From Pecten maximus (Eukaryota), in assembly GCF_902652985.1 (NCBI RefSeq), contig NC_047019.1:42594001-42658000 (forward strand): a DNA stretch of 64,000 nucleotides. Direction: 5' to 3'. Shown here one piece after another: positions 27,526-64,000 of the stretch (position 1 is the first letter of the stretch; every line of letters starts with the position of its first letter). A program made the translations under genes and the position numbers. Below the pieces are notes generated by a model. It searched no databases. It had not been told where the DNA came from and saw only the letters and a program-made list of their open reading frames with translations.

Positions 27526-28415
27526 GAACATGCTATCTACGTCCCAGGTTGAATACAGGAAAAAATATTTTATGCATGTCCCTGGTTGAATAGAGTAAAA
27601 AAGGAACATGTGATATATGTCCCAGGTTGAATACAGGAAAAAGGAACATGTTGTATACGTCCCTTGTTGAATACAGGAAAAGGGAACATGTTATATACGT
27701 CCCTTGTTGAATACAGGAAAAGGGGACATGTTATGTACGTCCCTTGCTGAATACAAGAAAAAGGAACATGTTATATACGTCCCTTGATGAATACAGGAAA
27801 AGGGAACATGTTATGTACGTCCCTTGATGAATACAGGAAAAAGGAACATGTTATGTACGTCCCTTGTTGAATACAGGAAAAAGGAACATGTTATGTATGC
27901 CCCTTGTTGAATACGGGAAAAAGGAATACGTTATGTACGCCCCTTGTTGAATACAGGAAAAAGGAATACGTTATGTACGTCCCTTGGTGAATACAGGAAA
28001 AAGGAATACGTTATGTACGTCCCTTGTTGAATACAGGAAAAAGGAATACGTTATGTACGTCCCTTGGTGAATACAGGAAAAAGGAATACGTTATGTACGT
28101 CCCTTGGTGAATACAGGGAAAGGGAACATGTTATGTACGCCCCTTGTTGAATACAGGAAAAAGGAATACGTTATGTACGTCCCTTGGTGAATACAGGGAA
28201 AGGGAACATGTTAGTCACGCCCCTTGGTGAATACAGGGAAAGGAACATGTTATGTACGTCCTAGGTTCAAAACAGGAAAAAGGAACATGTTGTATACGTC
28301 CCTTGATGAATACAGGAAAAAGGGAACATGTTATGTACGCCCCTTGTTGAATACAGGAAAGGGGAACATGTTATAGACGTCCCTGCTTGAATACAGGAAC
28401 ATGTTGAATACAGGG
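27526..28415. repeat. 40-bp minisatellite (GAACATGTTATGTACGTCCCTTGTTGAATACAGGAAAAAG), about 22 copies, running into the gap
   Basis: Directly visible. Confidence 0.96.
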
Positions 28416-31568: not shown

Positions 31569-34500
31569 TTAGTCATCATCCCAGTTCTTGTTCTCCTTTG
31601 CCTTTGGTCCACCAGCTGGCTTAGCCATGATGATCTGTAAACATACAACATTCTGTATCAAACATTGAAAGTTGGAGGCGGGGAACTTCTCCTTTATCAG
31701 ATGTGTTAAATCTTAAGGTATATCTTCTATATTTTATATCTTAGAGCAGGAAATATTTGTAAAATCACTAGTTACATCTCCTGTTTGATGTCTTAGTGCA
31801 GGGAATATTGGTAAAATAAGGTATATATCTTTATCTTATGTCTGAGCAGGGAATAATCATTATGTATTTTACCTGGTCCACTTTGAGTACAGTGCAGGCA
31901 GCTGCAGTGGCAAACTTGATTCCCCAGTATTTGTTGATATACAGATCTAAGATTTCCTTTTCCACAGCATCGGCTACATCTACTGGACTGGCCTGAATGG
32001 AAGGTAACCATGTATAAAGTTAATTTCAGAACACAATTGGAAAATACTATTGTCACTCTTTTCTGCCAAATGAACTACATTTTTTTCTAGTCTATGTTTT
32101 ATTTCCAAATAATAAATGATTTTTCTTAACCCTACCTAATCAGAAAATATTAAAAGCTCTTCAGCGACCAAAAGTTGCAAGGATGTAATAAAACATTTTA
32201 AACTGATGGACTTTAAAACTTACAGAAGTACTGTGTACTTTAGAAATGTGGATTTATTTTATCATACAATTACCATTATTGTTATAACACATATCTGGAC
32301 TATTACCTCTATGTCCACTCCAACATTCTTTTTACCCTCCTGGTGAGCAGCGTAGAGTTTTGACAATACCTCTGTTGCCTGTAATAACAATTGTATGGTT
32401 AGTTAGTTTACATTTGGAATGAGGCCTTCAATTGTTTTTATTAAAATGTTCATAAAAATTTCTTCGAAGATCTGCCATTTGCATCTTTCCCCAATAGACA
32501 GGTCATAGCAGACTACAACAAGGCCAGGGGGCAATGGGAGAGTTTGATCAAGGGGAACAACCCTTACAACAGTTTTTCAAGGCTCATCACTGCAGTGAAA
32601 ATATAAGTTATATCAGTTTAATGATAATCTTCTATATTTCACAGGCAAAAATGTAATAAACATGTTTATCATATGTAGCATTTAAACTGTTTGGTAAAGT
32701 ATGGTGTGGGTCACTTTTGTTGTAAATAGCACTTGTAGCTTATCTACAGTTCTGAGGATGTCATGTGGTTATCACAGGAAGGCCCCCAACTTTTACCCTC
32801 CATAGTCGTTAAGATTTAAGTAATACAGATGTCTGTTGCAGCTGTTCTATTTAACTATTTGGTCATACATTTAACACATTCCTTGTATATTTTCACACCT
32901 CAATTTCACAACACTGGTACTGTCCATCTCACTGTTCAGCTTCAGGAACAAACAATTTATTTGAAGAAGATTTTAACCTCTTCCAAACATGATCATTTCC
33001 CACCCTCTGTTATGCTCTTGACTAAAATGTTGTATCTATGCAAACTGAACTTTTCACTTATTAAAACAGCTTTCTTTAATATATAACTATATATGATTGA
33101 TGAAGATGTATTGGCGTCAATTTATGATGAACTTGTAAATGTTACTTACCTTTGCCCCTGCATTCTCCGATATAGCTCGTGGAATTACTTCTAAAGATTC
33201 AGCAAACTTCATAATGGCATATTGCTCTAGACCAGGTTGACCCTTCAAAACCAAAATTCTTAGTTACTTCTGTATCTATAATGACTCTTTAAATTAGTAC
33301 TAAAATACCTAGGCCTGTTTGATTTTTTAATATATTTCAAGCATATATCTTGACAGACCTGCTGATATTAATGCATGCCATGAAAGTCCAAATGTTTATA
33401 TCATGATTAAACAAATATGGCCCCGGTTTTGGTTATTATTGTACAGGATTTGTATTTATTAGATATTTTTTAGCTATATTTGCGGTTTGGAAAATAAGGG
33501 AAACATCAAAATTGAATGTGTTGATTTTGCGAGTCAGTTGGTATTGATAGTCAAAAGGGCAGTAATGTAACTTCATCATTAACAAAGAGAGCTCATTTTC
33601 AAATCTCATTCTGATCATGGCATTGTCCATATAATGATCACCTGTCATATAAATTTCCGTTTGTTCCCTGTGAAACCTATTGTGACCGGGGACAATACTG
33701 ACCCTATAAAATTGATATAAAGAGATAGATACAGTACTCATTACAAATAAATAAGGATTTCAACTATACACACCTCTCCATATGTAGTCAATTGTTTGGC
33801 CAATTCTATTTCCGTGGCACCAGCTCCTGGTACAACTCTAACATCCTGCGAGTAATTAATGCAAATTATATTTTTCCTCAATCTAAATATATACTACAGT
33901 ATTAGAATTCATCGTATTTGAAAACAAAAATGTTGACTCTTCGAAGATATTTCAAGTTATCATTAGCTTCAGAAAAGGTTTTATGAAGCTGTTGCCCTTA
34001 CCTTTGTTAATGCCTTGAATGTATTGACACCGTCATCAACAGCACGAACAACATCATCTAGGATATTATCTGTGGAGCCTCGGACAATGATGGTCGACAC
34101 AGCACTCTCCTCCTTGTCTGCCAAGGCAATAATGATCTTATATATCAGAAGAATGAACTTAGCTTACAAAATATCAAGACAATTTATGTGAACATAACTT
34201 ATACTTTAAATCAGTTTTCAATAATAATAAAAAAAAAAGAGTTTTAATTTATATATTCCAGGAGAAATGTACAGAAAAGGAAATAAATATCTTATAGAAC
34301 CTTAGCTGAGAAAGCTCTTGTTTATATACCTTGTTTGAACACAATAACCGAAGTGTCTCCTATCTCATCTACAAACACATGATCACAGTATCCACTTTCA
34401 TCTGTCGTTGGTGGGGTCTGAAATATTGTACAAAATTAATCTATATTACCAAGTCAATCTCAAAACAAAATACACTTTCTCTCAATCAAAATATTCTGTT

Positions 34501-37500
34501 AATTAATTGTATACACCTAAGTGATTTACAGCAATAAAACTGTTGATACTTACAATCCTAGGAAGGGGTGTGGCTCCTATAGACTTGCATAGTCTCCTCA
34601 GGTCCCACTTAGACATAAGCCTCACTACCATCAGCTGGTATTTGTTACAGAAATGGAGAGCAAGCTCTCCTACCTTTCCTCCAGATACCACCACTTTACA
34701 GCCAGTATCAGCTATAGCTTTAATTTGCTGTGAAAAGAAAAAAACGTCTTTTTAAAAAGATGTTTTTAAATAAAATGTCCAACTGGTAATTTGACATTTT
34801 TTATGAACATAATGAAATTTTTTTGGAACATGCTTCACCATTAGATGATAAATGTCTGTTACTGAAGTTGACTAAGTAATTTTTGCTAACAGCATCTGAT
34901 CGATTTCAAAAACAAAGAATTTACAACTTACTTCTTCCATTAAATTTTCTTCTCCTTTGCTAAATGCTAGCAGTTCGTCAGCAGACCTGATGGATATTTT
35001 ACCCTAAAAAAGACCCACACATTATGTTTAGTAATATATATCATTAAATAGGTATGATCATTAAGCAAGAAATACATTAATACATTAACTGTTACAGAGC
35101 ACAAAATGGATATTTTTACCAGGTGGCCTATTTGGCTACCAAGTCATAAAAGATTAACACAATCGCAAATTCACAAAAACATTTTAGGGGCCATACAGAC
35201 GCCTTACAGGTCAATAACTGGTCGCCAATGGTGAATTTAAGGCGCCATTGCCACTTAAATAGGTGCCACTTTGAGCCTTGGAACAAACCTTAAAATTGTG
35301 CATAAATTTATCAACATCATATGTTTGATGTGAAGCTATAGGCTGGATAGATTATTGTGGCATTTTGCCTAATTTGATACCTACAGTATACCGATAAAAT
35401 AGCAGATGCCCATAGGTCACCTGGCTACTCCGGTGACCTAAAATATCAATATCAAAAGTGATTTCCTAGTCAGACAATAACAATTAAGTAACAAGAGGCT
35501 CAGAGAGCCTGCATCGCTCACATGGATATTTCAGTAATTATGGCAGAATACTCATTTGAGTTATATTAAAAAAAATTTCCTTCTATTTTTGAACTGCCTC
35601 TCCCAACAATGGTCAAGTTACAGGTGGACCAAATCTTGTCATTCTTGAAAAAGCAAAAGGATTCGAAAGTTTTTTACTCTATTTCCCCAATATGACCCAG
35701 CCCCTCTTGGGCCAAGGGAAAGACATCCTCTGTTTATACACAAGATCTCCTTTGCCCAATAATGCTCCAGACCAAATTTCATAAAAATCCATTCAGGCAT
35801 TCAGGATTAGTAGGGATTTTAAGGATTTACTTCGATTACCCTATTGGGCCCAAGGTGAGCCAAAAATTGATGGAAATTCCAGTTGGTTCTTACCGAAGTT
35901 TCTGTCTGCATGGAATCAAGGGGACAGGAGTAGACAACCACTTTACAGTTCTCTGCCTTGGTTAGGTCTCCCTCTACCAGACGTTTAAACACCATTCCTC
36001 TTATCACTGTGGAGTTGTTGATTCCACTCCCCTACAAAGGTCAAATTTATACACATAAAAGTCTACAAAGGTCAAATTTATACACGTAAAATTCCACATG
36101 TCTACACCATATATATATTTCATACGAGTTTTATACAGTTTAATATTATACATTATTTTCCAGGGTACTGGGTAATTATGATCGGATAGTAGTTGATAAT
36201 GAAGTAAATGTGATACATCTTCATCTTCTAGATTTACCATAATTAAAGGTTAATTTTGATGAATGACGCTGTAATTAAAGACTTACCAGAATTTTGGAGG
36301 TTCTGACATTATCTACATTGAAGCTCACTTTCTGAGGTAAAATGGATACTGAAAGTCAATAAAAGTCGCATGTAAATCTTAATATTTAATCATTTTCACA
36401 TGGTGAGGCAATTGCTTGAATCATCTCTAAAATATATAAAGCAGCCAATATTATATACAGCCCTATGGTAAGCAGCATTTCCTGTGTCCATACCATATTT
36501 AATCTTGCTGTTCTCTTGTGTCTTTCGTACAGTCCTTTGAAGAAAGAGTGCTTGTAAAATATGTCTTCATTCATAATGATTCTAAATCAAATGTTAATAA
36601 TGAAGCAAGGTATGCCATATTTACCGAGAACATAAAGGTACCAAAGTTTTACTGTAAACAGATGGGCCCCTAGAATTATTTTCTTGGCTGGTGGTAGTGC
36701 ATCCTTGCCCCGACCTCTCCAAATTTTGACAATTTTTAGTGCCTATACTTACTGCAGGCATCCACAACAAGGTTTGCCAGGAAGTCTTCATTTCCATACT
36801 GCTTGCTCATTATAGCAGATTTGACAATCTTTTGAACATCTGCTTTATTTCTCAGGTTCTTTATTTCTCCACAAACAAGATCTAAAACAAACAAGCACAG
36901 CCGCTGATTAATTTGGAAACCTAACTAAATGTTTAATCTGTAAAATACATACATATTTCAGTGGCCCCATTATTTTAGCACTTTTCACACTCTTGAAATT
37001 GACCACTACAAGTTTTAAGAAGAATAAAGAGAAAGCTTTGTGAGTTTGACAGGGACGGTTGATACAATTATTTTATGAAACAACTTGTTTTATTTTTTAT
37101 CGAACATATTTTTTTCATTTCAGATTTTTTTGTTTACCATTATAAAGTATCATACCTGGAAGGAGATCTTGAGCTTTCTTAGCAGCTAACTCATATCCAT
37201 CAGTCACCTCTGTCACAGACAAACCCTACAAACACGATAAATATTGCGATGTTAAATCACACAGCAAGGCAATATACAAATTGATCAAACCAGATTGTAA
37301 TTAGAAACAAAACAGAATTACTTCCTTTTCTTTTAATAATCACTTATAAATTATACTGTTTCAATACGGTAATCATTGTATGCAGTTTTTCATAAAAAAT
37401 CTGCTTCTGCTTACAATGCAGTTTTTTGTACTTGTATTAATGGAATGCTACTCTGTGTTTTGATAATGACAATGCACAGGGAAAAGATCCCCTAAAAGTA

Positions 37501-40500
37501 CAAATGTCTGAAGTAACACATTTTATACTGTGTTGAATTTAACATTACAAAGTCATAAAGGAAAAGTCTGAAATCTGATTTTTCTGGATGAAAATGAAAC
37601 CTACCATCCTCAGCAGACTTTCTGCCTGCTCCAAGAGAGCTCCAGCAAAGACAAGAGTGAAGTTGGTACCATCTCCAACTTCCTGCTCCTGTTGATGTGA
37701 TGCAATTACCAACATCTTGGCTGCTGGGTGCTGAACCTCCAGTTCTCGTAGGATGGTGGCAGCATCATTGGTCACAAAGAGCTTTTCTAACTGGTTGATG
37801 ACCATCTTATTCTGGCCTGTAACATGAAATATTACACAAAACTTTGTTTACACTTCATTACATATTTTACACAGCCTACTTCCATCATAAAGAATTGTCT
37901 GAATTTCTTCTATGTGTTTGCCGACATTGCAATTTTAATACCCTACTAATTGGTTATTCATCTTCAACTAGAAACTTAAACGTTAATAAACAGTAGTTTG
38001 ACAGTCAGACTATTGTAATTTTAAACCTCTGCTAATTCATCTTCAACTAGTAACTTAAACATTAATTAAATAACAGTAGTTTGATAGACTAGATAAATCT
38101 TCATGAGCTTTAACACTGTAACATGTAGATCTCCCATAAAAAGACTGGGCTGTTACCGAAATACCTTGGACTGTCCTGTTCATGCTACAAATCTTACCTA
38201 GTGGGCCCAAGGCTGATCGTGTGGTCCTCGCTAACTCCTTACAAGCGTCTATGTTCCGATAGACAGCCTCTTCTAGTCCACTATAGTGCTACATGATTAA
38301 AAGAGAAACACATTTGATAAAGTTACCATTTCAATTTTCGAAATTATCCGTGTTTCCTGCGATGGAATAAATAAACATAATTGCACAGAAAATCCACAAA
38401 ACCCTACTGCTGTGCAATTCGCACCGAAATATTCTGCCACACCTCCACTTCATTCAGATATCATACACATGTGACACCACAGACAACCATAAACAGATCA
38501 TAGCATGGCGAGTGATTAGGTTATTAGTTTTGCTGTGATGATATAACTAGTTAATGAAATCAGAATATAAACAAGAGATCCCAGAGGAATCTTGGCGCCC
38601 ACCATTGAATGATCTTCATAGGTTCCATGTCAGATTGATCTTTTCTCTACTTTTCCCTTCATTTTATATATTAATTACTAATCTGTGCAAATTGAGACAT
38701 CCCTCCAGTACTTTTCAAACAAGGGAATCCTAGCTATATAAGAAATTTGAGATTTAACGATAATGGCTGTTTGTTTGCCAGGTTGTTTTCAGGACAGACT
38801 GGTCCAAAAATGCAATACAAGGGACCAAGGGGAACCTACTTATGAAATTTGAGAAAGATCCATTCAGTACTTTGAGAAATAGAGATAACAAACTTCAATT
38901 GTCAAAATCCAAGATGGCGGTCTGTCGGCCATATTGTTTTCCAATTGATCTCAAAATGCAATAAGCATAACGAGGCACCAAGGGGAACCTCAATTCGAAA
39001 TTTGAGAAAGATCCCTTCAGTACTTTCTCAGAAATAGCGATAACAAACTTCAATTGTCAAAATCCAAGATGGCTGCCTGTCGGCCATGTTATTTTCAGAT
39101 TGGTCTCAAAATGCAACATGCATAACTAAGCACCAAGGGAAACTTACATATGAAATTTGAGAAAGATCACTTCAGTACTTTCTCAGAAATAGCGATAACA
39201 AACTTCAATTGTCAAAATCCAAGATGGCTGCCTGACGGCCATGTTGTTATCCGATTGGTCTCAAATCGCAATATGCATAACTATGCACCAAGGGGAACCT
39301 ACATATGAAATTTGAGAAAGATCCCTTCAGTACTTTCTCAGAAATAGTGATAACAAACTTCAATTGTCAAAATCCAAGATGGCTGCCTGTCGGCCATGTT
39401 GTTATCCGATTGGTCTCAAAATGCAATATGCATAACTAGGCACCAAGGGGAACCTTCATATGAAATTTGAGAAAGATCCCTTCAGTACTTTCTCAGAAAT
39501 AGCGATAACAAACTTCAATTGTCAAAATCCAAGATGGCTGCCTGTCGGCCATGTTATTTTCAGATTGGTCTCAAAACGCAATATGCATAACTAGGCACCA
39601 AGGGGAACCTACATATGAAATTTGAGAAAGATCCCTTCAGTACTTTCTGAGAAATAGCGATAACAAGAATTGTTTACGGACGGAGGGACGGAGGGACGGA
39701 CGGACGACGGACCACGGACGCAGGGCGATTTGAATAGCCCACCATCATCAGATGGTGGGCTAAAAACTTAAAAAATATTACACACAAAAATGAACTCACT
39801 CATGCACAAAGTCACATCAATATGAGCACCACATACAGGGCAGTGTAACAATATTTCCACATTTACTGATAGGCAACTTTTTATGATGTTTACTATCTTG
39901 ATGTGTCCTCATTTTCTCAATGAATCCAATTTCAGTGGCCCATTAGCTAATCGCTATCTCAGAGAGTCGTGTCAGTCATTTTTTGTTTTTTGTTTGTGAA
40001 CAGATTGCCTGTGCATGCTTGTACTGAAAGGCTTAGGCAGTGAACAATTTTCGCACTTACCTGAATTTACATTTTCAAAGCTTTAATTTTTACTAGTTGA
40101 TGAAAATACAAGATTCTCGTTTATATTTATCCTTATAGGATAAACTCATTTCAACGATATAATGCCCCATCAACGATGCATAAACACAGGTTAAGTTATT
40201 ATCTGGGAGTGCTACCTTTTGATCACTGCCAAAAACAGATTTTTTTAACTACAGAAAGGGGAGGTGGTGACATTAGATGGAAATCAGTGGGTCTCTTAGT
40301 GTAGAACTTCGCGTTGAGTATGGATACCTCAGAGGTATGCCGGGCAGTTAGAGCAAATAAACTATGTGTAGTTATAAACAAGGGATGATAAGATTTGTCC
40401 TGATGAAGACCCTGTGATAGGGTCGAAACTAGTAGACCAATAAAATCTTGGCAATGCTCGAGAATGTTGTGGTTACTATCCCTTGTTTATAAGATCTTTT

Positions 40501-41129: not shown

Positions 41130-44100
41130 GTAAATGTGTCATTGTAAAATTTTAATGTAAAATGGCTAATTGTTTTCCCGTTTGCCTGGGCCTGTGAGGG
41201 GTGTGTCCCTGTGGGTCCAATGATTGGTCAGTGAAGTAAGCTGGTACTCACGGCCTCCGTCCAATCCCCGATTTACCCAGGGTCCCCTAGGTCCCGGTTT
41301 AGGTTTGAATCACAGAAGTTTTATTCATTCGAGATACTTTGGCTTGCGTGTCAACTTTGTTTTTTGTCACGTCAAGTCGGAAGTTCGGAGCCTAAGTCGG
41401 GCACATACGACCGAACTTTCATTACGATGGTATCAATCACGAGCATATTCGAGTAACAGAAGATCAGGAGAATCAATTCTTCGACACGAAACCTGATTAA
41501 GCTGTATAATTACGAACTCTCGATTTATTTCCCATTGTGTTGGGAACTCCGAGCTACGAGTCCAACGATCCGATTTGTGTTGAGAACATCGATTTACGCA
41601 CTTGTTAATATGGCCGGTGAATGGTGAATGAACTTGATTGGGTCATGCAGAGAAATCGTAGAACCAAATCCCGAATTGATTATCGATCCTTACACGAAGG
41701 GAATTGGAACAGTAGTGTGTCCGATATATCTGAAACGAACCCTCAAGAACTGTCTATAAACATTGCAAATCAAGAGGACCTATTTTTCGCTTCGTGTGCA
41801 GGAATGGCTGAAGGGGGTAAATCTGTCACGCCCCGGGCTTATCGCAGTCTAGAGAACGTTTGCATCGAGTCTCCTTTGGTTAGTGATGTGGACAAGCGCC
41901 TTGAGGAGGCAGACCGGGAGATCGCGCTGTTAGAGAAAAAACTGGAGTCGGCCAGATTGAACAGTGCATTAAAGGACAGAAGGAAGAAGCGGGATGATCT
42001 TCAGAGGCAGTTAGATGACATCCAGCAGGATCAGCCTCAATCAGCAGCGACTGGCCTTGGTTCAGGTATGCCTAACGACATAGACTTGATTAAACTGAGA
42101 AAAATGGACCAGCTGGTCAGCAGATCGAGCAAGAAGATGTCCAGGGTGTTGCCGGAATTTTCCGGTAGTGATACTGACTCTGACACTCTATCAGTCGCCT
42201 CATCGGCTTCCTACAATAGCTTTAAACGAGCACGTAAGGGTGAAAAACTCAGATCTGGTTTGAAAGCTAAAGCTGGAGACGTCGTGAAATTCCCTCAAGC
42301 TTATCCCCACCACTTTCTTCAATACAAATATGTAAGTAAGAATCCCCAGTTTCAAGATCTCACCTTTAAATTATTTGTGGCGGGAGAGCTTGAGATAATT
42401 TCCAAGACGAGCTCTGCTTCAGAGAAGGAAGGAAGGACAGTATTCCTTCAGAAAATTGTGTATTATAGCAATATTTATGAATGGAAAGCCTTGCTTGCAT
42501 GGTATGCGGCATGGCTTCGCAAGATAGAGTTGGGTGAGAGATCATGGTCAGATGATCCCTCAAGTATTGAAGTCCCAATTTTGGCGAAACATGTGTTGAT
42601 GCAAAAAAATGAGAAACCCAGAAATAGTGGTCCGATTCAGTCGGACTCTGGGAGAGTTTGGTTTTGTGTAATGTTTCAGAAAAATCGTTGTAGCGAAAGA
42701 GGGGATCATGATGGCGACATACGGGGTGTCAAAAGGCATTTGCTACATATCTGTGCCACATGTTGGAAAAAAGATGGGGTAAAAAGACAACATCCTGAAT
42801 CAGCAGAGACATGTCCAAATGCCTTGTGACTAACCGTCCCGTCTGTAGGTATTGAGATAGATCCAGACACCTCAATTATAGAACCCGAGTATGTGCCTTT
42901 TGAATTTGGAGGTAATTTGTTTGTATCGGGTGGCCAAGATATTGATTATAGACATATACCTATAGACGCTGTAGATGATATAGTTTCTGAGGTACCCGAA
43001 GAAACTGTTAGAAATTTACAGGTTCAATCCTGCTTTAATTTTAATACCCAAAGGACCCCTGTTAAGTCAAATTTTAACATCAGATATATGAAAGACAGGT
43101 TAGAGTTGTACTCGGATCTAGAGGTTTTAAAATTTTTAGAGTTTGGTTTTCCCATAGGGTTAGACAACCACCTCTTAATTCATCGCCAGGAGGCTACTTC
43201 AGAGGTAAGTTCTTCTATCAAGTACAGAAATCACAAAGGAGCTACAGACTTTCCTCAGGAAATAAGTGAGTATTTACGTATTGAGTTGGCAAATGAGTCG
43301 GTGTTAGGTCCATTTGAGGAAAATCCGTTTTCCTTACCCATGGTGATTTCCCCCTTAAACTCAGTTCCAAAGAGGGATTCTGAGGAAAGACGCATAATTT
43401 TGGATTTGAGCTTTCCGGACTCTAAGTCAGTAAATAGTTGTATCCCCAAGACTTCATATTTAGGGGACCCCATCTCATTGTCATACCCCAGGGTAGATGA
43501 CCTGGTAGAGATTATCAAGGAGAAAGGGAGGGGTTGTTGTCTTTTCAAGAGAGACCTTAGGAAGGCTTACAGACAAATTCCCATCGACCCGGGAGATATT
43601 CGTTTTTTAGGTTTCTCTTGGGAAGGTAAGATGTATTTTGATCGGGTCTTATCTATGGGTTTGCGTTCGGCAGCGTACATTTGTCAAAGAGTCACAAGTC
43701 TGATTTCGTTCTTAATGCTGCAGGACGGTTTTCTGGTCCTCAATTATCTAGATGATTTTGCAGGGGCTGAGTGCCCGGACATGGCAGATTTGGCTTTCTG
43801 GAGACTTGGTTCCCTTCTCTCTGATTGTGGCTTTATCGAATCGGAGAAGAAGGCAGAGCCTCCTGCCACTCGTATGGTTTTTTTGGGTGTCTTGTTTGAC
43901 ACAGTCAGGATGGTCTTAGAGGTCCCTGATTTTAGGTTGCAGGAAATAGGAATCTTAACCTGCGAATGGTTGAAAAAGGAAAGGGCTTCCTTAAAGGAGA
44001 TTCAATCCCTGCTGGGAAAATTACAGTTTGTCGCTGCCTGTGTTCGTCCAGGTCGACTTTTTGTTAGCCGTATATTGAACTGGCTCCGGTCGATTGGTCA

Positions 44101-46955
44101 GGACAGTCATCGTTCCTGGAGTATTTCAGAAGAGGTGAGAAAGGACATATTGTGGTGGCACATTTTTCTGGCACAGTATAACGGTGTGTCCATTATGTTT
44201 CTGGAACAATGGTCCACTCCAGACACTGAGTTTGCCTCAGATGCTTGTCTCACAGGCGGGGGAGGCTACTTCATGGGTAGATACTTTCATACAGAGTTCC
44301 CAGACACCATCCTTCAACTGTCCCCATGTATAAACATCCTAGAGTTGTTAACAGTTATGGTGAGTATAAAACTCTGGGCCAGTGCCTTTAAAGGTAAGAG
44401 AATTGTCATACTATGTGACAACGAAGCCACGGTATCGGTCCTCAACTCAGGTAGGTCCAGAATTCAATTTATGCAGAGCTGTCTCAGAGAGATATGTTAC
44501 TTTGCTGCTAGTTTTGAATTTGAGATCAGGGCGCAACACATCTCTGGAATTCAAAATCGACTACCAGACCATTTATCCAGGTGGCATTTAGATGTTATAC
44601 ACCAGCAGGAGTTCATCCGTTTGACCAAGGAAGTTGACCTGGTAGAGGAGGTAGTACCCTCTAGCATGTTCTCCTTCTCCCACTCTTGGTAGATTATCTA
44701 TACATAGTAGTTGAGACAGGGTATATATATAGTGATGTATCCCTCTCTTGGTGGTTTACCTTTTTCTTCAGTTTTGTACATATGTTGACACTATATACAT
44801 AGCAGTGTATCTTTTCCTAGTTTATAAGGTAAATTTTAGCGATATCAGGCTTTTATGACTCCTGTTTCATCCTTCCAGACACTGCCTGGTCACAGCTTAG
44901 GAAAGATCTCAAGGTGTCCGCTAGAGCAGCCTTCGCTGAGGGTACTTATAGAAATTTCCGTACACAATGGAAAGCTTATTTTCTGTTTTGCGAAGCGTTC
45001 CGGAAACAGCCGTTGCCGGTAAGCACGGAGATTATATGCCTTTACGCTCAGTTTTTAAGTCGGACTTTCATCAGTGTCGATTCTATTCGCAACTATATAG
45101 CGGGAGTCAAAACTCTTCACATGTTGCTAAACTTAAAGTATGACATTAGACAATATGAACTGAACTTAGTTTTGAAAGGTTTGTCGAGGTTGAACCCACA
45201 TTGTCCCTCTCAAGCGAAACCTATCACCCCTCAGATTCTCGGTAAGATACATCAGCGACTAGATCATGATGATCCAGAGGACACCACTCTGTGGTGTATG
45301 TTTTTATTCAGTTTCTATCTCATGCTGCGGAAGTCTAATTTAATGCCTAATAGTAGTCACAAATTTGACCCTAGTAAACATCTTTTACGACAGGATATTT
45401 TAGTAGAGGATGGGGTCCTCTTGGTTGTCGTAAAGTGGTCTAAGACCAATCAATTCGGACATCGGATCGTGCGTTCCCCTCTGGTGGCCATTCCTGGGTC
45501 CCCACTTTGTCCTTTACATGCCTTTGTTCGCATGACTGATCTAAACCCTGCACGTCCCAGGGCCCCAGCCTTCCTTAAGACTACAGGAAAGAAAATTGTC
45601 CCCTTTTGTTACCCACAATTTCAGCAGAGGCTACGGGAACTTATTCTTAGTGTAGGCCTAGATGCTGCCTCGTTCTCTTCGCATAGTTTTCGCAGGGGAG
45701 GGGCCACTTGGGCCTTTTCTTTGGGGATTCCAGGGGAGTTAATTCAGGTGCAGGGGGATTGGGCCAGCGACGCCTACAAAACGTATATCAGTTTTTCCTT
45801 AGAGGATAGGCTTCAGGTTTGCAGAAACATGAGAGATGCAATTTTAGCATTGCATCATTAACCAAGTTATCAGCCTCCCGCAGTTTTTTCGGGCTTGGTG
45901 GCCGGAGGCTTGGCGGCCCCTCAAACTGCTTGTATTTGTGTTTAATATGTTTGCTTATTAACATGCTTATTCATAAGTATTATTAATTTGCTTAATTTGA
46001 GCTTTGTTTGATTTGAGCTATGTTTAATTTGAGCTATGTTTAATTTGAGCTATGTTTAATTTGAGTTTTGTTTAATTGAGCTTTGTTTAAATTGATCTTC
46101 ATTTATTTGAGTTTGATCATGTAGATGCTTAAAGCTGTGTGTTCGATAACAAGCTTGCATGTAGTGCTAGAGGTGTATTTCCTTTTGGGGTTGCCTTGCT
46201 TATGCCATTTGCATACCAGAGACATTTAAGTAAAGTGGAGCATGGCACCCTAACTGGCTGACGCCTTCTAATGTGTTATACAATAAATTGTTACGGGCAT
46301 ACAGTTGTTATGTTGTAAATATCGTTGACCAGGCAGGGGAGAGAATTACGTTTACTTAATCCCATGTAATTTATTTTATTATACCGACATGTGGGAACAG
46401 TTTTGGAAAATAAATTTTGTATCTTGTGCACTATACTACAATATTCTAGAAAGAATCAGGCATGGATTCATTGTGTAATGATACTGCTCAGATAGGGGAG
46501 GTTACTCTTCCCAAACTTCAACAATCCCTTACAGCATGTAAAAACATGCGGACGGATTATCATTCATGAAGGATCATGATTTTACCAATTTTACCATTTT
46601 GAAATAAATAATGGAACCCTAGATAAAAGAAATGTATACTAAAAATAAATGTTATGCTATTTCACTATAATATCGTATATCTTATGTATGGTCCAAGTGG
46701 AAAGCCTTCAAGAATGTTCTGGAAATCATAAACACAAACAGCATGAACAGCATGGTTGTCACATGGTTTCAATGGTTCATGGAAAACAGACGATTAAACG
46801 TGAAAGAGATTTCTGTGTGATTTCAGAAAATGTCGAACTAACAAACCAATACGCAATTTACTCAATTTTGAATAAAGATAGAAAATATATATTACCTTAG
46901 CACCATCTTTCAACATCTGGGCAAAGCCCGGTGCTGTCGGTACGTGCATCGCCAT
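31569..46955 (-). CDS. CCT8: T-complex protein 1 subunit theta (chaperonin CCT8), complete, 16 exons, 544 aa
   Basis: Exons 46896-46955, 38198-38288, 37605-37816, 37156-37225, 36753-36881, 36287-36348, 35894-36031, 34932-35003, 34554-34727, 34330-34417, 34002-34117, 33774-33845, 33150-33242, 32307-32378, 31873-31992, 31569-31634 (1635 nt, all GT-AG, phases consistent). Peptides MAMHVPTAPGFAQMLKDGAK, TNDAATIL, EVGDGTNF, VPGAGATE and IIMAKPAGGPK...WDDD*. Confidence 0.97.
35490..35866 (+). mobile_element. Degenerate non-autonomous Helentron-type (HINE-like) element
   Basis: Starts AACAAGAGGCTCAGAGAGCCTGCATCGCTCAC (short hairpin plus subterminal motif) and ends GGTGAGCCAAAAA. The terminus resembles the reverse-oriented one at 60875-60910. 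Confidence 0.55.
38569..39766 (+). mobile_element. Non-autonomous Helentron-type (HINE-like) element with about 6 internal 155-bp repeats
   Basis: 5' hairpin (AGATCCCAGAGGAATCT) and subterminal GCCCACCAT; 155-bp tandem units (marker at 38891, 39046, 39201, 39356, 39511); GACG microsatellite; 3' palindrome TAGCCCACCATC-ATCA-GATGGTGGGCTA; A-rich flanks. Confidence 0.8.
40390..40449 (+). ncRNA. Minimal type I hammerhead ribozyme (Penelope/retrozyme-like)
   Basis: Stem I AAGATTT-GTC / GAC-(CAATA)-AAATCTT; core CTGATGA+A 40400-40407; stem II GACCCT/AGGGTC; GAAA 40425-40428; stem III C-TA-G; GTA cleavage triplet 40432-40434. Confidence 0.82.
41094..41128. repeat. 35-nt poly-G run
   Basis: Directly visible, immediately left of the retrotransposon. 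Confidence 0.9.
41621..42829 (+). CDS. Gag-like ORF1 (coiled coil plus C-terminal Cys/His zinc finger)
   Basis: 402 aa; heptad region RLEEADREIALLEKKLE; WFCVMFQKNRC...H...HICATC...H...CP at the C-terminus. Confidence 0.85.
   Translation: MVNELDWVMQRNRRTKSRIDYRSLHEGNWNSSVSDISETNPQELSINIANQEDLFFASCAGMAEGGKSVTPRAYRSLENVCIESPLVSDVDKRLEEADREIALLEKKLESARLNSALKDRRKKRDDLQRQLDDIQQDQPQSAATGLGSGMPNDIDLIKLRKMDQLVSRSSKKMSRVLPEFSGSDTDSDTLSVASSASYNSFKRARKGEKLRSGLKAKAGDVVKFPQAYPHHFLQYKYVSKNPQFQDLTFKLFVAGELEIISKTSSASEKEGRTVFLQKIVYYSNIYEWKALLAWYAAWLRKIELGERSWSDDPSSIEVPILAKHVLMQKNEKPRNSGPIQSDSGRVWFCVMFQKNRCSERGDHDGDIRGVKRHLLHICATCWKKDGVKRQHPESAETCPNAL
42830..44692 (+). CDS. Reverse transcriptase - RNase H (pol); frame open from the gag stop, first ATG at 43088
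   Basis: RIILDLS, KRDLRKAYRQIP, MGLRSA, YLDD, FLG; RNase H residues SDAC, LELL, CDN, LPDHLSR. Confidence 0.95.
   Translation, partial: LTVPSVGIEIDPDTSIIEPEYVPFEFGGNLFVSGGQDIDYRHIPIDAVDDIVSEVPEETVRNLQVQSCFNFNTQRTPVKSNFNIRYMKDRLELYSDLEVLKFLEFGFPIGLDNHLLIHRQEATSEVSSSIKYRNHKGATDFPQEISEYLRIELANESVLGPFEENPFSLPMVISPLNSVPKRDSEERRIILDLSFPDSKSVNSCIPKTSYLGDPISLSYPRVDDLVEIIKEKGRGCCLFKRDLRKAYRQIPIDPGDIRFLGFSWEGKMYFDRVLSMGLRSAAYICQRVTSLISFLMLQDGFLVLNYLDDFAGAECPDMADLAFWRLGSLLSDCGFIESEKKAEPPATRMVFLGVLFDTVRMVLEVPDFRLQEIGILTCEWLKKERASLKEIQSLLGKLQFVAACVRPGRLFVSRILNWLRSIGQDSHRSWSISEEVRKDILWWHIFLAQYNGVSIMFLEQWSTPDTEFASDACLTGGGGYFMGRYFHTEFPDTILQLSPCINILELLTVMVSIKLWASAFKGKRIVILCDNEATVSVLNSGRSRIQFMQSCLREICYFAASFEFEIRAQHISGIQNRLPDHLSRWHLDVIHQQEFIRLTKEVDLVEEVVPSSMFSFSHSW
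44881..45861 (+). CDS. Tyrosine recombinase; frame open from 44833, first ATG only at 45121
   Basis: Catalytic set LRKSN (R), WSKTNQ (K), HSFRRGGA (HxxR), GDW and AYKTY (Y); N-terminal core-binding-like region TYRNFRTQWKAYFLFC. Confidence 0.95.
   Translation, partial: TAWSQLRKDLKVSARAAFAEGTYRNFRTQWKAYFLFCEAFRKQPLPVSTEIICLYAQFLSRTFISVDSIRNYIAGVKTLHMLLNLKYDIRQYELNLVLKGLSRLNPHCPSQAKPITPQILGKIHQRLDHDDPEDTTLWCMFLFSFYLMLRKSNLMPNSSHKFDPSKHLLRQDILVEDGVLLVVVKWSKTNQFGHRIVRSPLVAIPGSPLCPLHAFVRMTDLNPARPRAPAFLKTTGKKIVPFCYPQFQQRLRELILSVGLDAASFSSHSFRRGGATWAFSLGIPGELIQVQGDWASDAYKTYISFSLEDRLQVCRNMRDAILALHH
45992..46100. repeat. 16-bp tandem repeat (TTAATTTGAGCTATGT), about 7 copies, in the retrotransposon 3' region
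   Basis: Directly visible. Confidence 0.9.
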
Positions 46956-47164: not shown

Positions 47165-50100
47165 ATGAAGAGGAGAAATGCTGACTGCGGCAAGCTACGA
47201 CGCCTTCCAAAGCGAAGCAAAATAACGGAAGGTTTCTACGGAAGGTACATTCCCCATTTCAATATGGCAGCAAGCTGAACTGCAAAATTATCATATGGAG
47301 ACAATTTTGACAGATATTCTGCTGAAGCCAAAACTGTCAACAAAATATGTATTGTATGTTAAAATATTTTGACTTTCTGACCATAACCACAGCGATCCTG
47401 CACCACACTACACTGTTGTTTGTCCTAAATACACTTAATATTCTCACTATACGAGACCGTTTGCATTAATTCGGTCCATGTTGCAACATCACATGGAAAT
47501 CAGCTGCTGTCTTACCGTTAATCCGCGAGTAGCAAGCTGATAATGCTTGACAGTCATGTTTGTTGTAAGTTGACAAAAAAGATGTGCAAGTTTCATGAAT
47601 ATGCTCATATGATGACCATTGCTGTAATCAAATCGCTATTAATTAATGTGTAGATATCCATATTTCAGCACAATACAATATAGCATGGTGTTTGAAGCAG
47701 TATGAACCTAGAGTAAATGTTGTAGTATTGGATTTAAAAAAGTTTTTTGAGATTTATTTTAGATATATTGTAATAACTTTATTAAAAAATCCTAAAAATT
47801 GTGATTGTACATGTGGTATGCAGCTTGTACACAACACCTGATTACTTACAATGGTCACCATGACAGTTATATACCTGCCCTTTATCATAATTTAGTAGTC
47901 CAGATCTGTTTTAATGATTTAAACAAATGACATTTCAATGAATATTGAGGTGGCACTTTTTATTTTGATTTGATTTTGACATTCAAACAACAAACAAACA
48001 AACTGTAGACCTATCATTACAAAAAATATTGATGTATTGTCAATTCTCATCTTCCCATATGATAAAGATTCTTTTTTTTCAGAGAATTGATGCAAAGGTA
48101 GACACTGAAAAAAATTCACCAACCACTTTAAATAACCCTCTCATGCCTCTGCAATTCCCCCCACAGGAATTCAATGTTAGCGTCATGACTGACAGAATTG
48201 GTCATAAATTAAATAAATAAGAATAATAATAGCTGTGGCAAAACCTGTTTATGATGATAAAATTGTTATTTTACAGGATATCTCTGTCTTTAACTCTTCC
48301 TTTCAATTTTCGCAAGTCGAGAGCAGCCATTTTGCCTATGGCTGTATTGTGTAATACACAAAACAAATACCCCCAGATTTCTGAAAAAAACATCCTTTTG
48401 GTTTATTTTCACGTTGATTGGCTTCTTTTGCTGTAAACAATGATTCAATCTTGCAAAAAAAGTCCAACAAGAAGTATCTTCAAAAAAGAAAATGGACAAA
48501 GTTGACATTGTTGTATATTTTGAGAAGAAAAAAAAAAGAACAAAACAAGTGACAGTCAATGCAAGACAGCTATAAAAAGAATGACCATAGTGATAATGTT
48601 ACACTATGTTGTCAAATTTGGCAAGAATCATGTCATCAATAGGTAGAGTCAGCTGCATATTTTGTAGTTTTGTAACTCACTTCTCTAAAATAGCAAACCT
48701 ATTTGAACATACATACCTATAAAGAAACAGTTTTCCATTTTCCAATAACTGATAAACAAAATTGTTTTTCTAACAGTCAGTTGCATTATAATCAGACTGG
48801 TTTTTGTACATGGATGTGTATGAACTATCTTCTGGTTATAGGGATTTGCAATTTCAGTATTAAAATGCAGACACACTTTGAAGAAAGGAAAATACATTAT
48901 ATTGGAAATAATTAACACTAACTAACTTACTTAAAATGGTAAAATTAAACCATTTTAAATGTAGGGCATAGACCTAGGAATTTCATTACAGAAGTAGTAT
49001 AGGTTCATGTTTACCTGTGATCACTTTTTAACGTCAGGATGCCTTTGGTACCTGCCGTTATAGTCGTGATGGGAAAATGTTGTTAGTGACACTTTTGTTT
49101 TTTCCAGCTAACAATTCCTCTTTTCTGTCATACAAATGATATACATCCGCAGCCTAATATAGTTCCTATTTTGATAGCAGTTATTGACACGATTCAACTG
49201 ATGTAAACCGTATTTACTGCAATTATTTGAAATGAATGTTTGATGTTCTAGACTATTTTAGAGTATAAATATAAACATTTTCCTCGTCAGTATATGCAAT
49301 TTTGTTGGCGTAGGATTACGTAGTTCTGTCTCGATCCTGCCTTGAAAACGAAAGTAAAAAAAATCAGTTTGATCGTCGTGGAAATTTACATGCATTCACA
49401 GAGAAACTATCCACATGTCTTAGACTCATATGTTCATCCTGAGTTCATATGCAGGAACATTTATTATAAGCCTAAAACCAACCCTATTTACGTAGTCAAA
49501 TGCACCCGAACATTCCACGAGATAACTTCAGCTGTCACGTGACTCATCACAAGTCCAACGACCGTTCGCAGTTTCATATTCATTTGTATGTCGCTATAAT
49601 ACGCAAGAAATATCACCAGGAATTGAAGGCAGGTTGTAACAAACTACATTGCCGTTTTTCGTGAGGATTTTATTAAATAAGGTTATTATTTGTTTATTTG
49701 AAAATAATCTAATGATTATGATCCATGACTGATGTACTGGCGTCGATGTCAAAATGTCAACGGACAACGCGACTGTAATTTTCTATCAGAGTTAAAATAT
49801 GTTACTAGGGGTCATAAAATAGATGTTTGCTAGGCCTAATTAACATCTTATAGTATAAATATAAAATAAAAAAAAACTTAGGCTGTGTACATCTTTGATT
49901 GTACAACATGTTCTGTTAATAAACCGATTTGTCAATTTGAGTAAGAAGATTGAAATTTTTCGCTTTATTACTTTGCAGCACTTTTCTGTACCTGAAGTTT
50001 CTAATGGTTTGGGCCCTTGTGCTGATGGCAGATTTCATCTTGGAATTTCGTTTTGAGTACCTGTGGCCATTTTGGCTTCTAGTCAGGAGTGTGTATGATT

Positions 50101-53100
50101 CATTCAAATACCAAGGATTGGTACGTATTGTATCTATTTATTATTTGGTAAAGTCATTACTTTTTGTGTTATTTAGAATTTGAATGTGTTAATTCCAATT
50201 GAATTTACTACATTATTGTTGTAATGTATTGAAATTGGTGGGGTATACATACTTCACCTTCATTTCACTTTTGCCTATGGTTATGAGAGCATGGCTAGTC
50301 TTGTCTTGCAGCTGCTACCGAGTATGAAAGCGTATACATAAGGTCATTGGCAAAATCAAGGTCATTTTAGATGGTTGTTTCATATAAGGGTCCACTGTAT
50401 ACCATTACTCACCTCTTCTCATGATTTCTTCATGATCATCAGCCAGACTTTGTTGAGTAGGAACATGAAGATGGCAAGTAGGAGCAGAAACAGAAATAAC
50501 AAATTAAACATCTATGTATCTGGAAAAGACTCTACTGGCTGGACGACACTGCATTGAGTTCATCCATAGACATTCATATTGGTTCATGATGATGTGGGAA
50601 AGTTAGAGATTACCTGTCATCAGTGGGTAATTTCCTGGTTTTGATTGAAATTATAAAAGAGTTCTGGCTCTGGTATTGATTCTCGCATTATTAGCCCACC
50701 ATCATTAGATAATGGGCTATTCAAATGGTCCGTAAACAATCCTTGTTATCATTATTTTATGAAAAGTACCAGAGGGATATTCCTCAAACTTCATGTGTAG
50801 GTTCCTCTTGGTCCCTAGTTGTGCCATTTGAAGTAAGATTTTTGATCAGAAAAAATAAAATGGCCCACAGGTGGCAATCTTGGATTTTGAGAATTGAAGT
50901 TTGTCTTCACTATATGTCTAGTAGTATTTCTGAAACTTTATGTGTAGGGGATGTTCCCCTTGGTCCCCAGTTATGCCAATTGAATTTGGATTTTTGATAA
51001 AAAAACCACTAAATGGCTGATAGATGTCCATCAAGGATTTTAAGAATCGATGTTTGTCATCACTCTTTCTTTAAAAGTTCTTGAGGGATATTCCTCAAAC
51101 TTCATGTGTAGGTGTCTTGGTCCTTAGTTGTGCCTTATGAATTTAGATTTTGGATCAGAAAAGCAAAATGGCTGACAGACGGCCATCTTGGATTTTGATA
51201 ATTGAAGTTTGTTATCACTATTTCTTGAAAAGTACTGGAGGGATATTATCAGATTAGTAAGAGAAAAAAAAGAAAGAAGTGAAAAGTAGAGAGAAGATCA
51301 GTCTGAAATAGAACCAATAAAGATCATTCATTGGTGGGTGCCAAGACCCTTCTGGGATCTCCTGTATCATCATTAGGGTATAGATTCCATCATTCAATAT
51401 ATTTTTGTTAATATATGATATTTATATATATATATATATGTGTAACAGAAACAAAGAGTCTGAGAAACTTCCATGTGAAGAAGCTAGCCCTATGACTAAA
51501 TAATGTTGATGATTTGTCATTCCCTCGTGGCGAGCTGGCAAGGGATCTCTACCGACTTCATAGCGGTCCAATTATTCTTAAACCTCATACACTTACAGCC
51601 ATCATCTTTTGTACGAGTTTGCATTTCAATCACATGGAGTCAAATGAAGCCACTGATGTATGCTATTAATTGATCGTCTACTACCAACTTTATTAATGAT
51701 CCAATTTTCCTGAAACTTCTTACACTTACTCACAATTACCATCATATCTCTGTACAAGTTTGTGTTTTAACCACTTTGTTTAAAAAATTGGTCATTGTTA
51801 CTGTGATAGAGTTTCACCATCCTCACTCTAAAGACTTCATTAATGATACCATTTTTCCTGAATCTTCATGCACTGACTCACAATGCAATTCTATCATCTC
51901 TTTACAAGTTGGCATTTCAACCATTAGTGGTAAAAAATGAGGTCAATGATGTTACAATTAAAATTTTTAGGTCAATGGTCTGCCAACTTCAATAATGACC
52001 TAATTTTCCTGAAACTTCATACCATACTCTTTACAACTGTCATTTTTGTAGGAAATTGAATTTCAGCCACCTGGGGTCTAATTGAGGTCAGTGCTACTAT
52101 AAATAGATTGTCAACATCCTCTCTCTACCAACTTTCATTAATTACCTGATTGTCTTGATCAGAAATTTAATACACTTGTACAGCCATCACTTGTTGCTTA
52201 AGTTAAGGTTTCACCCACCTGGGCTTAAAATTGAGGGATCATCCTTTGTACAAGGTTTCACCCACCTGGGACCAAAATTGAGTCCATTAATTATTGTTAC
52301 CGGTAATATAACTAGATTTCTAATGTTCTTGCTCTACAAACTTCATTAATTTTCTCACAGTCCTGGAAGCTTAAGTCTTACCCCATTTTACTTGCAACCA
52401 TCATACTTTGGGCAAATTTAGGTTTTAGTCTCCTCGGGTAAAAATTGCTGATAGTCTTGATCTGCTACTATAAATAGATGTTCAACATCCTTACTCTACT
52501 AGGATTGAAATTGAAGTTGCTTTTACTTTTACCTTCATCATCCTCGCTCTACCAGTCTTGTTAATTTTCAAACTCTTGCTCAAAAATATTATCAGTTGTT
52601 ATGCTATTTAATAGTGTTTTTGTGAGCAACATATTTAGTGAAGAGAACATTATTATCTTTTTCTTGTATAGGTCAATGTTGAATAGCAACAGGATTTGTG
52701 TCACTTAAAGTATACAAGAAATCAGAATTTCAATCAAAGATGTGCAGGACATTTAACTTTTCTTACACTCTTCTATGATGAAATATTTTGTCATATCCTA
52801 ACCTGGACTAATGAATATGCCAACAAGCACAGTTGTGGTTGAATGAAAGACTTGGGAAATGTACATGTAGTGTCCCAAAACTGGCAGCCATATCATGTCT
52901 ACATGATTGTCAGATGATAATACATGATGATGTGTTATGTACATGATATACTGGTCGTTCGATATCTACCTATAACATTTATAGTCTAGGGGGAAGTAAC
53001 TTTTCCGGATATTGTCAGGGCATCCATTAACCCGAGACCTCGGGTCAAAGACGTAGCAAAATTTAATTTGACGCACGACTTTTGCATGCCATGCGTCAAT

Positions 53101-56100
53101 CTGATGCTTCACATTTTGACCACCACTGTAATTAGTCTATGTGTTGTCCAATACCCAGGCTTAACAAAGGGTATATTTGCTATGGTCAGAGACACTAATT
53201 AGTAGAATACCCCAAGGAGTCAATTAAAAGAGCCACTCAACTGTGACTAATCCAACTGTTGCTGCTGATTGCCAAATTGGGGCACAGGTGAAGTATCCAC
53301 TGTACCTACCTGTAGTGGCCGATCTGCACTTTGTTCTAAGCAATAACATTTAAATGATTGAAATAAGTAAGCTATAGAAGAGTCCCATCCCAACAAATAA
53401 ATGTAACATATGTTTTTGATAACTTCTAAGTATGTACATAACAAGAATGAGATCGTAAGCAGGCCTAGTTTGCAGCATGCCAACACAGGCGACAGCCATT
53501 TTGTTGTTAACCTGAATAACCTTACATGACCTCGATCTGCAGTTCATTTGAAAGGGTGGGAAGCGTAAATCATTCATGTTACATTTTGGCGGCAAATATG
53601 ATAACAGGATTAGCATACAAAAATTACCTCTAGAGGCTGAGCAGATTAAAAAAAAGATAAAAAAAAATAAAAAGATGGTTTTACAAATTATGCTTAACCA
53701 ATGTAACACATTTAAACATAATTTCAGCAAGAAAACTGTGATACAAGTCTTTTTGTTAAAAGAAATTTATTTCAGTTATTCAAATTAAATAAAAAAAAAT
53801 AATTATGTTTTAATTGTACTTAATTCAAACAAAAAAAATACATTGTATAATTAAAAGAAAAGTGTAAATTTTAAAAATACTTTTATTTATTTAATAAAAA
53901 CACATATTAGATAATAAATTAAGATGAACTAAATTCTTTTGAATATAATTTTTGAAAAAAGACATTTTTATCAGTTTGCATTTGGAAACGATTAACCGTC
54001 AAGTTTGAGAATTTCACATTTTGACTCTCAGGATTTTGATTTGACTCTCAGGATTTCAGAGCTGAGGGTCACTGACTCTTGAGATTTTAATCCTACTGGA
54101 TGCCCTGTATTGTGTTTGATTTTATATTTCGTTTTATTAGTTTGTCCTGATAAATGTATCCGTTAAATGTTTTTGTTGGTTGTTATTATTGTTGGAGAAA
54201 ATGGAGTAAAATAAAAATGATGTACCTTATGATAGTAAATCCACACGTACATGTTTTAGAAGGAAAACCTCTCAGCCAAGCCCCCCCATGGTCATGCATG
54301 GTAAAATGCAAAATCAATTCATCATCACATTTTTTTCCTGAAAAGTCTCAAAAAGCCCAAGGTCATGATATTATTAGGGCAGTATATGTAACTGTAGCTA
54401 ATTAGCTATATATAGCTATGCTTGGATAAATGGCTATCTAATGACCATATGCATGTTGTCCTACATTCAAGTCACAGGCTAGGGATCAAATGTGATAAAA
54501 ATCTTTTATACAATTTAAACAAATTCTCAATAACCAAGGAGCCAATAAGGTCATCATATTGGTTGTAGTATGCTTTGATGATGTTAAAAAGATATGATTT
54601 GCTCAAATAAACCTACTTTCATGGTTGCAGGGGTCAATAGATCTTCTTAATAAAGAATTTATCCTAGAGTGGAACGATAAATCATGTGCACACATGTACA
54701 TGTACATACAGATAAAAATTGATATTCTGCATTATAAATGTAAACAGTGCAGTATATTGTTTATAGTAATCTTATGACCCATATAATTATAAGTTTCTTC
54801 TCAATAACCAAGTATTTCAGCATCATGTTATCAGACTAGTTGCATACTAGGATATATATACCTATAAAAATTCCAATTGTTGTCTAAATTCTTTTGGTTA
54901 TGAAATAGATTTACAGTGTTGATTTTCCTTTATGATTAACGGAAACACTAAGCTAGTGTACCAGTATTTTGTAGGTAAAATAAATAATTTATAGCTTGCA
55001 CACATATATAACTGTTTAATTGTGATCATTGGGCTTTTGCAATATATTGCATTTAAAAATTGGCACCAATACCCAGCGCTTTTATCTAACTAGCCATCCA
55101 AGTTATGTTGAAAGAAAATTATTAAGTGCACTGTATGCTTTACATTATAACAAACCTCATATTCTCATTCAGAGGACTCAAGTGGTCTTATAAGAACACT
55201 GAAAACATCTTTGGTGTAACCATAAAATCAGCATCTGGATGACATTACAAAACATATAGCTTTGTTACTCAACTAAGTATATATCTATGTGTCTAAAAAA
55301 AAATTTAAGTGTAGGGGTAGATGATGTAAATCTAATTCTCCTCTATTCTATTTTTAACTTGGTCAAACACAGCCAGAGTTGCAATAGCTTCATAATGCAA
55401 ATAAATCACCTAATTAGTGTTTGATATGATGCATTTTATTTGCATTTCCAATAATGATGTGCTTTAAAATTTGTAGTTGCAAACTCCTAAAAGCCCACAA
55501 AGTATACAAAATAGTGGGGGAAATACAAACTTGCACACAAAATTTGAAAAATAATGTGATGAATAGTCCAATCTGAATCACTTGAGTTAGGTATGCATGT
55601 ACAGTACAATGTAGCTAGCTATAGGTACATTGTAAAAGAACATATAATATCTTATTTTGTTGGGAGTTGAATTGAAACTTGAAGGGGAATGATATGGCAA
55701 AAGGGGCTATAGATTTGTACTGTTTCTCCTTCATCTTTAAGGCCTAAAGATGTTTAGTTCTTCATCTACAAAGCCTAAAGATATTTTGAACTGTTTCTCA
55801 TTCATTTTAAATAAATTTAGAAGGCATCTAGGTTAATTGTAAGGAAAATACTGTACTGTTAGATTATTTGTTAGATATCTCCAGGTTTTTTACCAATGGA
55901 GTTCATGTTGTTTTGTTTTTCTTTGCAGGCTTTTTCAGTGTTCTTTGTGTGTATCGCAGTAACTTCAGATGTCATTTGCTACCTCTTTATTCCTGTACAG
56001 TGGCTATTCTTTGCGGCCAGTACATATGTTTGGGTACAATATGTATGGCATACAGGTAAGCTATGATTGATACTCGTTGAATAAATTCAAAGATATGACC

Positions 56101-63813: not shown

Positions 63814-63891
63814 GTATGTCTATATACTCTTGTGTGCTGTTCAATTTAATTATAAAGCATAAATACTCTACATATTATATATATATGTTTA

Positions 63892-63978: not shown

Positions 63979-64000
63979 TCAGTTTCTGTATTTCAGGAAG

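Follow-up and report, generated by a model that had tools for sequence, protein, structure and literature searches.

A retroelement in the 64,000-nucleotide stretch of Pecten maximus DNA analysed here (the window) raises the question of how its enzymes are expressed. Its tyrosine recombinase (YR) frame follows the pol stop and contains no ATG before position 45121, as the original prediction had noted and as was confirmed on rechecking; a start at this ATG would cost the protein 80 residues of the core-binding region. The prediction proposed one solution for both enzymes, i.e. a phase-1 donor in gag that is alternatively spliced to an acceptor before pol and to another before YR, placing the same 148-residue Gag N-terminus on either product. 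The sites on which it was built are all present: the donor CAG/GTATGC at 42065/42066 follows 148 codons of Gag and is in phase 1, weaker donors of the same phase occur at 41816/41817 and 42233/42234, and the AG dinucleotides ending at 42848 and 44878 both require a phase-1 donor. Further phase-1 GT sites in gag are found at 42239, 42335 and 42533. Both joined frames are open, corresponding to 475 aa for Gag-N/YR and 762 aa for Gag-N/pol. The features of the element are collected in Table 1.

Table 1. Positions, in window coordinates, of the features of the element and of its proposed expression signals.
Feature	Position	Strand	Remarks
Whole element	41141-46347		Young Ngaro-type tyrosine-recombinase retrotransposon
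A1 split direct repeat, 223 bp, element 5' end	41141..41363	+	Recurs as A2 after B1; ends set by flanks
gag ORF, 402 aa	41621..42829	+	N-terminal motif, coiled coil, conserved core, C-terminal Cys/His cluster
Exon 1 coding part, 148 codons + G	41621..42065	+	Common to Gag and Gag-N/YR
Predicted long helix/coiled coil, Gag aa 85-136	41873..42028	+	AlphaFold pLDDT about 70-80, rest low confidence
Donor CAG/GTATGC, phase 1, used in RNA	42063..42071	+	To 44879 in run X1; in both X1 and X3 also to acceptors of the host
Intron of YR mRNA, 2813 nt (Gag C-terminal part, all of pol, spacer)	42066..44878	+	GT..AG; retained in genomic RNA
Originally predicted pol acceptor, AG 42848	42826..42849	+	Present, weak, not conserved, no use seen
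gag stop UGA-CUA, in frame with pol	42827..42833	+	Likely readthrough site
pol ORF, 620 codons: linker, RT, RNase H	42830..44692	+	RVT_1 Pfam; RT_RNaseH in 8/21 aligned homologs
13-bp stem, 42840-42852 with 42956-42968, 10 nt past UGA	42840..42968	+	Possible stimulator
YR stop-to-stop frame	44833-45861	+	
YR acceptor, phase 1	44851..44878	+	TGAC branch-like motif, pyrimidine tract, CAG
YR exon, core-binding and catalytic domains	44879..45861	+	Phage_integrase E 0.0018
Second donor CCG/GTAAGC, within YR	45016..45024	+	Host exon joined in run X1
B repeat, 435 bp	45913..46347	+	Single B in window copy, without A2-spacer-B2

About a dozen copies of the element, with 98–100% identity, are present in the P. 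maximus genome, and they start and finish with ATT. The sister copies have the layout A1 (223 bp)-ORFs-B1 (435 bp)-A2-36 bp-B2, the A1 sequence being found again as A2 behind B1 in the surrounding stretches of 10 of 12 other copies; the window copy has likely lost A2, spacer and B2 by recombination between B1 and B2. This layout is the arrangement of split direct repeats, A1-[ORFs]-B1-A2-B2, by which Ngaro elements of the order DIRS are defined in the available parts of PMC8547959 and PMC6681497. The repeats are direct, without DIRS1-like inverted terminal repeats or an internal complementary region, and the ORFs follow each other on one strand in the order gag, RT/RNase H, YR, as in Ngaro. 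Neither pol nor any of 21 homologs aligned with it gives a Pfam match to a methyltransferase domain, and the pol C-terminus extends ∼40 aa beyond the last RNase H motif. By its repeats, gene order and absence of a methyltransferase the element is a Ngaro-like member, placed in a YR tree that holds unnamed relatives only. Unlike Xenopus Ngaro, as described in the accessible text of PMC9210276, it has no SGNH hydrolase ORF. A 16-nt tandem repeat within the B repeat (45962–46108) differs in copy number between element copies, and a search against Rfam gave no match within the element. In two deleted copies, L059 and L062, A1 is joined to internal positions at short microhomologies rather than at splice sites. 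The element is located between a TCP-1/cpn60 chaperonin gene (34500–38300, minus strand) and a macoilin gene (49900–64000, plus strand), which are divergent. Tandem repeats of 155 bp lie on both sides of it in opposite orientation (38700–39700 and 50700–51300), and a rhodopsin-family GPCR ORF that looks intronless (26492–27532, minus strand) adjoins an assembly gap of 100 N.

The reading frames already limit how the enzymes can be made. The pol and YR frames do not overlap: the distance from the pol stop (44692) is 140 nt to the opening of the YR frame (44833) and 186 nt to the YR acceptor (44878). From residue 5 onward, YR shows a weak match to Cre residues 22–132 (E 0.14), and the acceptor falls at the beginning of this weakly matched Cre-like core-binding region. 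At the other junction, gag and pol share one frame and are parted by a single TGA followed by CTA, a feature that the original prediction had missed; the first ATG of the pol frame is located at 43088. Searches of gag against Pfam returned only weak coiled-coil matches; the pattern of the predicted coiled coil is also present in bivalve gene models, and an AlphaFold model of the Gag-N/YR fusion is of low confidence (mean pLDDT 40.8). The TAG stop of pol closes a pyrimidine-rich, acceptor-like tract (44670–44692), behind which further stops follow in the YR frame.

Evidence for splicing was sought in assembled contigs of four runs or studies (X1, X3, X7 and X16 among the labels), none of which is on record as RNA and whose RNA nature was guessed; in such contigs rare forms are dropped, the strand is absent and depths are rough. 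In X1 a contig joins 42062 to 44876, which after a shift of 3 nt corresponds to 42065/44879 with GT..AG boundaries and skips 2813 nt, exactly the junction foreseen for YR. Approximate depths in X1 are 63.9 for the joint, 43.6 for the unspliced contig and 120.8 for the 5' exon. The joint was thus seen in one of four transcript-like runs; in X16 the element is spanned unspliced, and the contigs of X7 stop short of YR. All 11 genomic copies that contain exon 1 continue through 42300, past the donor, and the joint is therefore not a genomic deletion in the assembly. A processed copy was likewise rejected as its source, as no genomic copy ends at 42065 and none of 21 matches begins at 44879. With its joint present in RNA and lacking in DNA, the skipped segment is a spliceosomal GT-AG intron.

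The spliced RNA in X1 originates from a sister copy whose YR is disrupted, because all 13 substitutions, the loss of 23 nt within YR and the 3' flank agree with the copy on C6 (L061; G000:C6:22758239-22764100, where G000 is the own genome), the most expressed copy in X1. The deletion, located between two CAG repeats, shifts the YR frame of this copy, and an NCBI model of 228 aa (P0122) matches it. Some of the RNA of this copy leaves the element once more, at 45018, and continues in a host exon. The unattached ends at 42065 that occur in both X1 and X3 start directly behind canonical host acceptors, which means that both hold spliced RNA and that the gag donor is used in two studies. Chimeric element-host RNAs hence arise from the gag donor (X1 and X3) and from the donor at 45018 (X1); the host exons include L192 (G000:C3615:17802, minus strand) and L193 (G000:C5:14224820, plus strand), and no element copy is found near these two in the flanking stretches examined. 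For a distant family, L066, a splice had been predicted beforehand; in the three covering runs, X1, X2 and X3, the contigs cross its donor and acceptor unbroken, and X16 barely covers this locus.

The same joint is found in gene models. The best match of YR, XP_033729484.1 (475 aa), shows the exact Gag148/YR join, and all eight NCBI models in its cluster (P0001) share the join SAATGLGS-D-TAW; the RNA seen in X1 may also underlie these models. In three other bivalve models (P0002, P0003 and P0129), which come from Argopecten, Mizuhopecten and Mytilus trossulus, YR is preceded by a comparable N-terminal motif and a coiled coil, and by this resemblance their N-terminal parts are probably spliced Gag parts. 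A separate case is P0229, an ENA protein of 955 aa known from the protein alone, which has full Gag in frame with Pol and reads W-L at the join, as if the gene caller had read TGA as Trp.

Conservation in relatives was examined by taking as acceptor the best-scoring site between 120 nt before and 45 nt after the YR start, with splice matrices made of generic metazoan frequencies rather than trained on P. maximus. On this scale the YR acceptor of the window element scores 6.5 and the pol acceptor only 2.7. From metagenomes, 80 of 120 confirmed loci were taken, forming 72 families (<80% nucleotide identity); the YR start is usable in 49 of these, the end of gag is available in 49, and gag is complete in 22. 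The YR acceptor is in phase 1 in 43 of the 49 families, as compared with 86/224 null windows (binomial 1e-12, for families that share ancestry). These acceptors are mostly located no more than 8 nt away from the homologous site, and the trait is spread over the whole YR tree, with a median pairwise identity of 35%. In the own genome, where 6 of 44 loci were left out because their YR start was not usable, 21 of 25 families show phase 1 (null windows within YR, 43/101), or 21 of 22 if three families of degenerate copies (phases 2, 0 and 2) are omitted; the remaining miss is L091, and two of the degenerate copies nearly share the acceptor sequence of L064, the closest family. The top gag donor is in phase 1 in 21 of 22 metagenome gags (null 38/63, p 2e-4, which is weaker evidence) and in 11 of 13 own-genome gags, the mis-called L065 and L078 being omitted. 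Donor positions are not strictly homologous and are scattered, most of them falling downstream of the coiled coil and upstream of the conserved core. Counting against the splice scheme, an in-frame ATG precedes YR residue 12 in 16 of 48 relatives. In many loci, including L116, L117, L137, L139, L140, L147, L177 and others from metagenomes, a branch-point-like motif often lies within the codons at the very end of pol (His-Asp/Asn-Trp-stop), and the acceptor follows 15–25 nt past the pol stop. A T-R-A-Y motif occurs upstream in 29 of 43, a count made without a null.

For pol, the relatives point to a different mechanism. The gag frame ends with TGA-C in 48 of 49 relatives; at the same loci this context is found at 2 of the 56 stops of pol and at 1 of the 43 stops of YR. 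A single in-frame stop separates gag from pol in 42 of the 49, with an open linker of 19–242 codons, over which the alternative frames stay open in 2 of 84 cases. In these 42 the +4 nucleotide is invariably C, TGA-CT is found in 32, and the triplet after TGA is CTA in 14, CTG in 11 and CGG in 2. UGA-CUA and UGA-CGG are given as the type II readthrough motif in the available part of PMC13517186, with UGA CUA ACC as the Sindbis context, to which the window sequence is identical. It is therefore likely, as judged from these sequences, that pol is expressed by UGA readthrough. In the window the stop codon is followed by a 13-bp stem that covers the originally predicted pol acceptor AG; its value of -18.2 compares with a control minimum of -11.1, and the fold of the whole region has z = -1.1. 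A general 3' readthrough stem across relatives was tried and rejected, as no enrichment was observed at 44 junctions (p=0.74). More distant own-genome families use other arrangements: L066, L069 and L079 have a -1 gag-pol overlap with an A-AAA-AAC/G motif, and L084, L085, L091 and L107 a +1 overlap with no clear signal; an in-frame stop is found in L064, L070 and L110.

Could pol nevertheless be spliced as originally proposed, the one donor serving two acceptors? The AG at 42848 is in the correct phase and is preceded by the branch-point-like TGACTAAC, and a minor pol splice could escape detection, since rare isoforms drop out of contigs. However, a joint to 42849 is absent in all four runs, and an X1 contig runs unbroken from 42036 to 44905. 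The best acceptors near the pol start are distributed over the three phases as 17/16/16 in 49 relatives, i.e. at random, and L064 has an in-frame TGA-CTAG without the matching acceptor. Neither is there a protein of the Gag-N/RT type: a query with Gag 1–148 against proteins of 260–2000 aa gave one match among 633 candidates, which is the YR fusion, and no Gag-N match was found in 120 pol homologs. The two-acceptor scheme is thus very unlikely as a whole. Its YR half stands, at the exact sites proposed, on RNA, gene models and a phase match that exceeds the one-in-three chance the prediction had allowed for; the phase match at pol, where the acceptor is weak and not conserved, does not. Pol could also be made without readthrough while YR is spliced, through an internal promoter, reinitiation or a non-canonical bypass of UGA. 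The readthrough reading is drawn from sequence, and its putative stimulatory stem is not general. Moreover, in the accessible text of PMC2194720, the gag-UGA-pol flank of Candida Tca2 alone gave no readthrough in reporters, and the junction can hold a minor promoter. Against this alternative, the strict TGA-C context and the long in-frame linkers are what readthrough would lead one to expect, and in 25 of the 42 in-frame relatives the first ATG lies past the conserved pol start. Expression of pol by one of these other routes is accordingly considered unlikely.

The explanation that we regard as least probable of all dispenses with the splice: YR would be reached from pol by programmed ribosomal frameshifting, and the observed joint would be cryptic noise of one broken copy. 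According to a quotation in PMC13003380, Poulter and Butler (2015) called frameshifting from pol 'probable' for Ngaro YR, and the available part of PMC3783388 describes YR as either in frame or frameshifted. The joint does come from one defective copy, and the test in L066 was negative. The end of pol is overlapped by the YR frame in 24 of 48 relatives, in 17 of them in -1, a trait that is described for Ngaro in print but does not define the group. The window element lacks this trait, and a pol-to-YR frameshift is impossible in it because an in-frame stop and 140 nt intervene. The frame of YR relative to pol varies among the 48 relatives (-1 in 23, 0 in 16, +1 in 9) whereas the acceptor phase is near-constant, and an in-phase slippery heptamer is present in only one of them. 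Small overlaps of pol and YR, including the printed ones, can be attributed to the acceptor, which is often located 15–30 nt past the pol stop.

The preferred reading combines splicing of the gag donor at 42065 to YR at 44879, likely expression of pol by readthrough of UGA-CUA, and a coiled coil that is predicted to carry YR into the particle; we estimate its probability at about three in four. A single promoter would in this way give rise to three proteins that all start with Gag. Unspliced RNA from A1 would serve as genome and direct the synthesis of Gag (402 aa), with occasional readthrough to Gag-Pol (about 1023 aa), and removal of the 2813-nt intron would yield Gag-N/YR (475 aa). The predicted helix of Gag residues 85–136 could then load YR into the Gag particle. 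Such a role may be proposed by analogy with the orthoretroviruses, in which Pol is packaged through Gag-Gag contacts, according to the available text of PMC7828637. The absence of spliced copies among the 11 genomic copies with exon 1 fits a spliced RNA that would be kept out of reverse transcription.

Drosophila copia and plant Ty1/copia elements splice out pol to set protein ratios, and their spliced RNA makes Gag only, whereas here part of Gag is fused to a downstream enzyme. Single in-frame stops comparable to that of the window element occur in Moloney MLV (UAG), Candida Tca2 (UGA) and the alphaviruses (UGA-CUA); different from these systems, the stop is here combined with a spliced integrating enzyme and a general downstream structure is absent. 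Foamy viruses (Spumaretrovirinae) also produce a retroelement enzyme from a spliced subgenomic RNA. Their Pol, however, carries no Gag and needs an RNA scaffold for packaging, as stated in the accessible part of PMC7828637, whereas here YR is the spliced enzyme and keeps a Gag N-terminus, and RT is not spliced. The difference from Ngaro in print, where YR is assigned to frameshifting in the available text of PMC13003380, is that YR is spliced from inside gag and that pol likely depends on UGA readthrough. Neither a spliced Gag-recombinase fusion nor UGA readthrough in Ngaro is reported in the literature searched, which comprised titles and the starts of abstracts. Splicing is unmentioned in the available parts of PMC3783388, PMC9210276 and PMC8547959, and in those of PMC6681497, PMC4157794, PMC7192593 and PMC9341512 it concerns other matters. 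The separate ingredients are known, namely splicing of foamy pol and readthrough in retroviruses and Tca2; their combination in Ngaro is unreported in the literature searched.

In the parts of the literature examined, expression of an ATG-less YR in YR retrotransposons has so far been guessed, as frameshifting, and not shown. A defined splice and a leaky stop would give the actual products, a 475-aa Gag-N/YR and a Gag-Pol of ∼1023 aa, and constructs made from the bare YR ORF would miss the N-terminus. The integration step would be placed under the control of host splicing, with handles on particle assembly. Because host exons, too, are joined to the active gag donor by splicing, insertions create chimeric transcripts. 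Many 'uncharacterized' bivalve RefSeq genes would be fusions of this kind. Whether the plan extends to animal Ngaro elements in general is, in our judgement, evenly balanced: it would consist of a spliced Gag-N/YR with a phase-1 intron, conserved at YR identities of ∼25–35%, a clade-specific recoding for Gag-Pol by either UGA-C readthrough or -1 frameshifting, and a coil that loads YR. If this is true, the integrating enzyme would be uncoupled from Pol across animals and dosed by host splicing.
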